Source of the DNA: Escherichia coli
Lineage (GTDB): Bacteria; Pseudomonadota; Gammaproteobacteria; Enterobacterales; Enterobacteriaceae
Length of the DNA stretch: 64,000 bases
Assembly: GCF_003018255.1 (NCBI RefSeq)
Contig: NZ_CP027440.1
Direction: 5' to 3' (one strand)
Shown: positions 62,205 to 62,782 of the stretch, piece by piece
Position numbering within the stretch: position 1 is the first letter of the stretch
Layout of the letters: each line of letters begins with the position of its first letter
Notes under the pieces: model-generated
Database searches by the model: none
What the model saw: the letters and a program-made list of their open reading frames with translations, nothing else
Told to the model about the DNA's origin: nothing
Made by a program: the position numbers and the translations under genes

Positions 62205-62211
62205 TATTCTG

Positions 62212-62240
62212 CTCCAATTGTGATGTTTGTTGTTTTAACC
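62212..62240 (-). promoter_or_regulatory. CA-rich GcvB sRNA target site in the dppA 5' leader
   Basis: The mRNA reads AAAACAACAAACAUCACAAUUGGAGCAGAAUAAUG; a CA-rich tract just 5' of the Shine-Dalgarno is the known type of GcvB pairing site for dppA. Confidence 0.5.
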
Positions 62241-62782
62241 CTTTGCAGTGGGTTGTCGCTGCCTGACCTTTTTTGTTTTTTGCCCGGTCGGGTCAACGTT
62301 ATGAGGTGGGGATGCCGTACTAATTAACATCAGTGTAACAGTGCGGATCCTCCATAAAATGCCCCTCGTGACCTACAATCTGTCAACAGAATGTGAAAAC
62401 GTCAATACAGCCAACCGGGATTTACACCAACGGTGAGAATCCACAAACAAAGATTAAAAAAACTTCAAACAGCTATTTGCAGCAGAGAAATTTGTGCTAC
62501 GCCAACACAACCAGAACAATCAGCTTAATATTTAGCAACATTTGGTGATTAAGTTTTATGCATTTAATGAAAAAAATCTGAGGAAAAGGTGGATATCTGA
62601 GCAATTAATACCATGAACGCTAAAACGCACAGCGGAAAATGCCAGCGCCAGCCATAAGTAACGCAAAAAAAGATTTAAGCAAATATAAAAAAAGACAATG
62701 GTTTCTGTCACAAATCCGTTAATGGATAGTGAGATATGGGGCGCAAATTTGACAGGGAAATGTGTGGTGTGTAGATCGAATA

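Follow-up and report, generated by a model that had tools for sequence, protein, structure and literature searches.

The C/A-rich GcvB target site of the dppA leader, mapped in a 64-kb stretch of Escherichia coli DNA

Introduction

The sRNA GcvB and the mRNA of dppA, the first gene of dppABCDF, form a regulatory pair that is already known and published in detail from Salmonella Typhimurium and E. coli K-12 (Urbanowski 2000; Sharma 2007; Urban & Vogel 2007; Pulvermacher 2008). The pair was reportedly mapped biochemically in Salmonella (Sharma et al. 2007, the primary footprinting paper), while Pulvermacher et al. 2008 is the mutational paper for E. coli. In E. coli, GcvB repressed a dppA::gfp fusion reaching from -165 to codon 14 by 3.2-fold. 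Repression was 4.9-fold with a truncated RNase E, the C-terminal part of the enzyme being dispensable, and 1.6-fold without Hfq, showing its Hfq dependence (PMC1807950). A lambda-dppA::lacZ fusion gave 103 Miller units in the wild type versus 554 in a gcvB deletion, which could be complemented with the gcvB of Yersinia (PMC1557403). In both E. coli and Salmonella, dppA is a verified target of the R1 region of GcvB, with support from RIL-seq, CLASH and MAPS (PMC9299463), and the contact has been localized in situ by TRIC-seq (bioRxiv preprint 10.1101/2025.09.11.675593). Among the benchmark interactions of the IntaRNA paper is this pair, which had been mapped biochemically; the program recovered all of its verified base pairs (PMC2639303).

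The site has a second published role. In Salmonella, deleting a 15-nt segment with its ACA motifs lowered dppA-lacZ expression by 96%, and when the four ACAs were randomized, 18 of 43 mutants retained only 0.5-5% of the wild-type activity; GcvB was proposed to act by silencing this ACA enhancer (PMC3879156). Other C/A-rich targets of R1 are oppA, gltI, argT, livJ, livK and yifK, and in yifK, like in dppA, the ACA motifs also serve as translation enhancers (PMC3879156). The dppA site couples peptide uptake to amino-acid availability and is one of the founding cases in which C/A-rich elements were recognized as sRNA targets and ACA motifs as translation enhancers.

Other trans-acting regulators touch the same circuit. 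The SroC sponge lifts GcvB repression of ABC-transporter targets, and the same paper lists DapZ as a riboregulator with an analogous function on mRNAs related to amino acids (PMC4474525). Both are encoded outside the stretch of DNA analyzed here, and neither is part of the dppA locus. Chao et al. are said to have found in 2012 that DapZ, with a GcvB-like seed, represses dppA and oppA in Salmonella.

Here we describe the dppA control region in a 64-kb stretch of E. coli DNA (the window) and give an anatomical map of it, in window coordinates, from the promoter through the 165-nt leader with its A-rich tract, hairpin and target site to the Shine-Dalgarno sequence. The GcvB site itself is not new, and biologically its rediscovery in the window adds nothing; what it shows is that a genuine sRNA target can be recognized from sequence alone.

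Results and Discussion

The dppA coding sequence, which encodes a periplasmic dipeptide-binding protein of 535 aa, lies on the minus strand at 60597..62204, as given by the list of open reading frames and by the RefSeq annotation of the matching record. Upstream of it are 569 nt of non-coding DNA, from 62205 to a REP-like element at 62774, and further upstream on the same strand RtT-type repeats, a tRNA-Pro(CGG) gene at 63117-63193 and eptB. The K-12 RefSeq annotation places nothing between dppA and proK. A 1201-base query spanning dppA-proK-eptB had matches with 100% identity in two complete genomes, and in 4868 genomes the match covered 80% of the query or more.

The dppA Shine-Dalgarno sequence, GGAG, can be read directly at 62212-62215 (minus strand, -11..-8) and is nearly invariant in Enterobacterales. 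Two bases upstream of it ends a C/A-rich block, AACAACAAACAUCACAA (= AACAACAAACATCACAA), located on the minus strand at 62218-62234, which is -30..-14 relative to the A of the dppA ATG; on the dppA strand, the surroundings of the block read GGGUUAAAACAACAAACAUCACAAUUGGAGCAGAAUAAUG. Sixteen of its 17 bases are C or A, and four ACA triplets lie within 15 nt (-29..-15) close to the Shine-Dalgarno. On the minus strand of the window, it is the sole 17-mer with at least 94% C+A, compared to five such 17-mers on the plus strand.

As gcvB itself lies outside the window, a GcvB sequence of 206 nt served as the probe. Of 5426 E. coli genomes, 5425 gave a match, which in 5389 had an identity of at least 99%. 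The retrieved locus was situated between gcvA and ygdI and scored 199 bits against the Rfam family RF00022, the consensus of which draws R1 as single-stranded. The best local duplex joined GcvB 56-83 to dppA -31..-6 at -29.2 kcal/mol, and its core, GcvB 64-83 with dppA -31..-12, accounted for -21 kcal/mol. Within this core, R1 nt 64-82 and dppA -30..-13 formed 18 pairs, 17 of the Watson-Crick type and one G-U, with G75 bulged, and the dppA block shared with R1 a perfect Watson-Crick seed of 10 nt, AACAUCACAA. The dppA side was predicted to be open, with a probability of being unpaired of 0.86, compared to 0.48 for the whole mRNA, and an opening cost of 0.86 kcal/mol. For R1, ViennaRNA predicted a partly structured fold that costs 7 kcal/mol to open, whereas the Rfam consensus is single-stranded, and the absolute pairing energies are uncertain because of this disagreement. 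The duplex could reach into the Shine-Dalgarno only if the base of GcvB stem-loop 1 were melted, which is roughly energy-neutral; we therefore do not claim pairing across the Shine-Dalgarno. When RNAduplex was run without restriction on the leader and the whole of GcvB, the two molecules were zipped end to end at -103 kcal/mol, which is meaningless, and windowed duplexes were used instead.

The predicted interaction agrees with what has been described. The gene, the Shine-Dalgarno-proximal position and the R1 partner are the same as in Salmonella Typhimurium and E. coli K-12. The benchmark in the IntaRNA paper has 17 verified pairs, a number that we infer from the sensitivities of 16/17 and 13/17 given there (PMC2639303), versus 18 predicted here. 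Among the C/A-rich R1 targets, the dppA site is characterized by ending two bases from the Shine-Dalgarno. The strain of the window is chu-positive and is not K-12 itself. Nothing of substance differs from K-12: the two are the same base for base from -241 to -1, and four substitutions were found further upstream, at -305, -304, -297 and -242.

The G/U-rich R1 yields low-energy duplexes with many sequences. Raw hybridization energy proved unsuitable as a test of specificity. The best raw duplex of the leader with R1 (-27.1) had a z of -2.1 against dinucleotide shuffles, 9 of 300 of which reached this value, and the dppA site was outside the top 15 of the window, where many GC-rich places score better. 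Counting 10-nt R1 seeds was also dropped, as the window holds eight versus about 2.6 expected. Two of these eight perfect matches, at ~54184 and ~54667 on the minus strand, fall in the repeated region of the Ldr toxins and probably arise from this repetition.

We then relied on a scan in which opening energies were added and which covered -50..+20 of the annotated start codons of the 49 genes in the window. With a corrected energy of -15.4 kcal/mol, dppA ranked first of 49, but only 0.5 kcal/mol ahead of yhjV. The third rank was held by yhjE, which encodes an MFS transporter (start region 27820-27839, plus strand; -10.6 kcal/mol). As yhjE has been independently reported as a physical partner of GcvB in vivo (PMC8534726), the scan recovers real interactions. 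The second-ranking yhjV encodes a putative transporter of the amino-acid type and has a C/A-rich start region, AUGCAGCACAACACACUACC, at 55062-55081 (plus strand), with an R1 energy of -14.9 kcal/mol. For a comparison of this region, E. albertii was the sole usable relative, and in the literature searched, yhjV and GcvB were mentioned together only in a genome announcement, each term once.

To follow the block beyond E. coli, one genome per species was scanned with a coding motif of DppA, YCSEGSPEGFNPQ, which returned 120 loci; since the motif is a coding one, similarity of the leader was not selected for. In an alignment on the start codon, the C/A-rich block adjoined GGAG in Escherichia, Citrobacter, Klebsiella, Enterobacter, Pantoea, Erwinia, Yersinia and Serratia, and likewise in Photorhabdus, Xenorhabdus, Proteus, Providencia, Pectobacterium, Dickeya, Edwardsiella and Hafnia. 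A block with at least 13 of 15 C+A at -45..-8 was present in 90 of 92 Enterobacterales dppA loci (74 distinct sequences), compared to 3.5% of the background blocks taken from these upstream regions, 2 of 20 orthologs from outside the order (alpha-, beta-proteobacterial and other) and none of three AT-rich insect symbionts; these counts come from related species and are not independent trials, so that the p-values of the Fisher and Mann-Whitney tests are not true probabilities. The median number of ACAs at -45..-8 was five in Enterobacterales and zero outside the order. Measured against the E. coli R1 throughout, and not against each species' own GcvB, the longest exact match was 7-14 nt in all 92 Enterobacterales loci (median 10, minimum 7). 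Among 5422 E. coli genomes, 5406 carried the 71-nt stretch around the site with an identity of 99% or more.

These data bear on whether the run of C and A could be a chance low-complexity stretch devoid of a regulatory role. Five comparably C/A-rich 17-mers do occur on the plus strand, and R1 forms low-energy duplexes readily, as noted above. Nevertheless, the block is unique on its own strand, in 74 distinct sequences from Enterobacterales it keeps its place beside the Shine-Dalgarno between diverging flanks, it is almost invariant over 5422 E. coli genomes, and direct experiments have addressed it (PMC1807950, PMC9299463, PMC3879156, PMC1557403). We regard the notion of a chance stretch as refuted by the conservation and the published genetics, its probability being negligible.

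It is almost certain, in our judgment, that 62217-62234 on the minus strand (-30..-13), with its four ACA motifs, is where GcvB binds the dppA mRNA and that GcvB blocks ACA-enhanced initiation, an assignment that draws on duplex, accessibility, conservation and the Salmonella ACA data (PMC3879156). The preliminary description had noticed a C/A-rich block beside the dppA Shine-Dalgarno within 62212-62240, which was borne out with correct coordinates (62218-62234), and had read it as a GcvB target, a reading supported by the duplex, the accessibility, the gene ranking and the published repression and contact data. The two checks it proposed, an IntaRNA prediction (PMC2639303) and dppA reporter fusions with and without GcvB (PMC1807950, PMC1557403), had already been published with positive outcomes. 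Complementarity, accessibility, rank among the neighboring genes and conservation come from the present analysis, whereas repression, Hfq dependence, physical interaction and enhancer function are taken from the literature.

In rich medium, Hfq-dependent GcvB would pair through its single-stranded, G/U-rich R1 (nt 64-82) with the unstructured block at -30..-13. The duplex would end two bases from the Shine-Dalgarno and cover the four translation-enhancing ACA motifs, which would result in less 30S loading, less DppA and lower expression of the dppABCDF dipeptide permease. In the window strain, the ribosome would presumably be excluded sterically.

A different emphasis is that the block is primarily an intrinsic ACA translation enhancer that recruits the 30S subunit, GcvB pairing being secondary or incidental. 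We consider this very probable. The Salmonella deletion and randomization experiments described above (PMC3879156) argue for it, the four ACAs of Salmonella recur in the E. coli site, and the Enterobacterales median of five points in the same direction. However, the two roles are not exclusive; silencing of the enhancer is the very mode of action argued for GcvB (PMC3879156). Moreover, the block is more than ACA-rich, given its exact R1 matches of 7-14 nt in 92 of 92 loci, and GcvB-dependent repression was measured in E. coli itself (PMC1807950, PMC1557403). In the assignment that we favor, the block has both roles, in pairing with the sRNA and in enhancing translation.

We then turned to the extent of the leader. 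The fusions of Urban & Vogel begin at the annotated transcription start that belongs to the most proximal promoter, at -165 in the case of dppA (PMC1807950, Methods and Table 1). Since the window and K-12 are identical from -241 to -1, this start can be transferred to the window, where the transcribed 5' UTR of 165 nt occupies 62205..62369 on the minus strand. The +1 nucleotide is an A at 62369 (PMC1807950), which is also an A in most of 13 aligned genera. The putative core promoter spans 62377..62405 on the minus strand and consists of TTGACG (62400-62405), a 17-nt spacer and CAGATT (62377-62382); it is invariant in 13 Enterobacteriaceae genera, and its spacing fits a start at -165. TTGACG matches the sigma-70 consensus in five of six positions and CAGATT in three of six, which is below the threshold of a consensus scan, and the scan missed the promoter because of this weak -10 element. 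The promoter anchor was kept in 42 loci, the leaders of which were mostly 145-179 nt long.

With transcription starting at 62369, the DNA at 62370-62560 is promoter and upstream DNA and not leader RNA: 62205-62369 is the leader, and 62370-62560 is a putative promoter with a weak -10 element plus conserved upstream control DNA. This modifies the earlier claim of a long leader over 62205-62560. The upstream DNA is indeed non-coding, while a leader of ~350 nt is overstated, the transcribed part being 165 nt. Likewise, a further ~350 bp of non-coding DNA before the REP element is loosely right, the whole non-coding stretch measuring 569 nt, of which 165 nt are leader.

A distal promoter that would have all of 62205-62560 transcribed, giving a leader of at least 350 nt, seems to us distinctly improbable. 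It could be sought in a promoter-like GTGACA, 18-nt spacer and TATATT (10 of 12 matches) at 62711..62682 on the dppA strand, and the fact that the published clones start from the "most proximal" promoter only is compatible with a distal one (PMC1807950). However, the region has two promoter-like matches versus 1.3 ± 1.2 by chance, the invariant TTGACG-17 nt-CAGATT stands exactly where the -165 start requires it, and conservation above -165 comes in discrete boxes, which is typical of protein-binding DNA. In addition, the Rfam covariance models gave zero matches in 62205-62560 at an E value of 1 or less.

The conserved upstream control DNA lies at 62409..62504 on the minus strand (about -205..-300), and the 13-genus alignment resolves it into the boxes GTAGCACAAATTTCyCTGCTG, CTTTTTTTAATCTTTGTTTG, ATTCTCACC and TGTAAATCC. 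Together with the weak -10 element, these boxes suggest that the promoter may depend on an activator. The dppABCDF genes are listed among those affected by Lrp (PMC4474525).

Conservation is also strong at the 5' end of the transcript, in the proximal leader sequence +3..+67 (62303..62367, minus strand), which contains a possible stem-loop. In the 13-genus alignment, +3..+40 (62330-62367) was nearly invariant across the Enterobacteriaceae. RNAalifold gave no consensus structure for this conserved part, and in the stem-loop of the E. coli MFE fold only 57% of the cells were paired across genera, with a few compensatory changes in the basal helix; we therefore claim no conserved structure. The conservation of 62330-62367 and 62409-62504 goes beyond the needs of a simple promoter or of a loosely conserved stem-loop. 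The two blocks could be bound by a protein or RNA regulator as yet undescribed for dppA, for instance with an operator over +3..+40. We find this unlikely.

In the same part of the leader, an upstream ORF of 11 codons (MEDPHCYTDVN, 62320-62355, minus strand) preceded by a Shine-Dalgarno-like GAGGGG was rejected, its ATG being replaced by ACG, AAG or AGG in other genera. A mirror sequence at 62502-62519, which is a C/A-rich 17-mer on the plus strand and G/U-rich on the dppA strand, was considered as an internal anti-site and rejected as well, on three grounds: its position is upstream of the transcription start, three of the four substitutions relative to K-12 fall within or beside it, and its conservation ends with E. 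albertii.

Two features lie between the 5' end and the target site. The first is an A-rich tract, AAAAAACAAAAAA, at 62269..62281 on the minus strand (-77..-65), which is placed in a predicted loop and is A-rich in 13 of 13 aligned genera. Judged by its sequence, it is a candidate (ARN)n site for the distal face of Hfq and might serve as the landing site of Hfq in the regulation by GcvB. The second is a small hairpin, AACCCACUGCAAAGGGUU, in the E. coli MFE fold, at 62237..62254 on the minus strand (-50..-33), directly 5' of the target site. It occurs as the variants CCCGCTGCAACGGG and CCCCGTTGCAGGGG in other genera and is absent from leaders of the Klebsiella/Leclercia type; any function of it is putative.

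In five loci (L074, L107, L112, L029 and L057), insertions stretch the leader to 223-300 nt. In L074, the one that was aligned, the insertion separates the A-rich tract from the target site, and downstream of it both the C/A-rich block and the Shine-Dalgarno are kept. This insert may be ERIC-like.

Beyond the non-coding stretch, the REP-like element at 62774-62855 matched the Rfam family naRNA4 (CssrE) on both strands, with 62.6 and 42.7 bits. A direct repeat of 108 nt on the minus strand (62860-62967 and 63028-63135, 94% identical) starts inside the 3' end of the tRNA-Pro gene (proK) and carries a terminator-like hairpin in each copy. Rfam identified 62949-63082 as RtT with 100.9 bits; the RefSeq label reads "RtT sRNA, processed from tyrT transcript", but the element here follows proK and not tyrT.

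Elsewhere in the window, bcsG (51263-52943, plus strand) is represented by two overlapping ORFs, 51263-52063 and 52029-52943, and no intact ORF, while in a closely related record it is a single coding sequence of 1680 bases, suggesting that a frameshift has occurred or that the sequence contains an error. Upstream of ~55 kb, the window and this closely related record are offset from each other by 1-2 bases.
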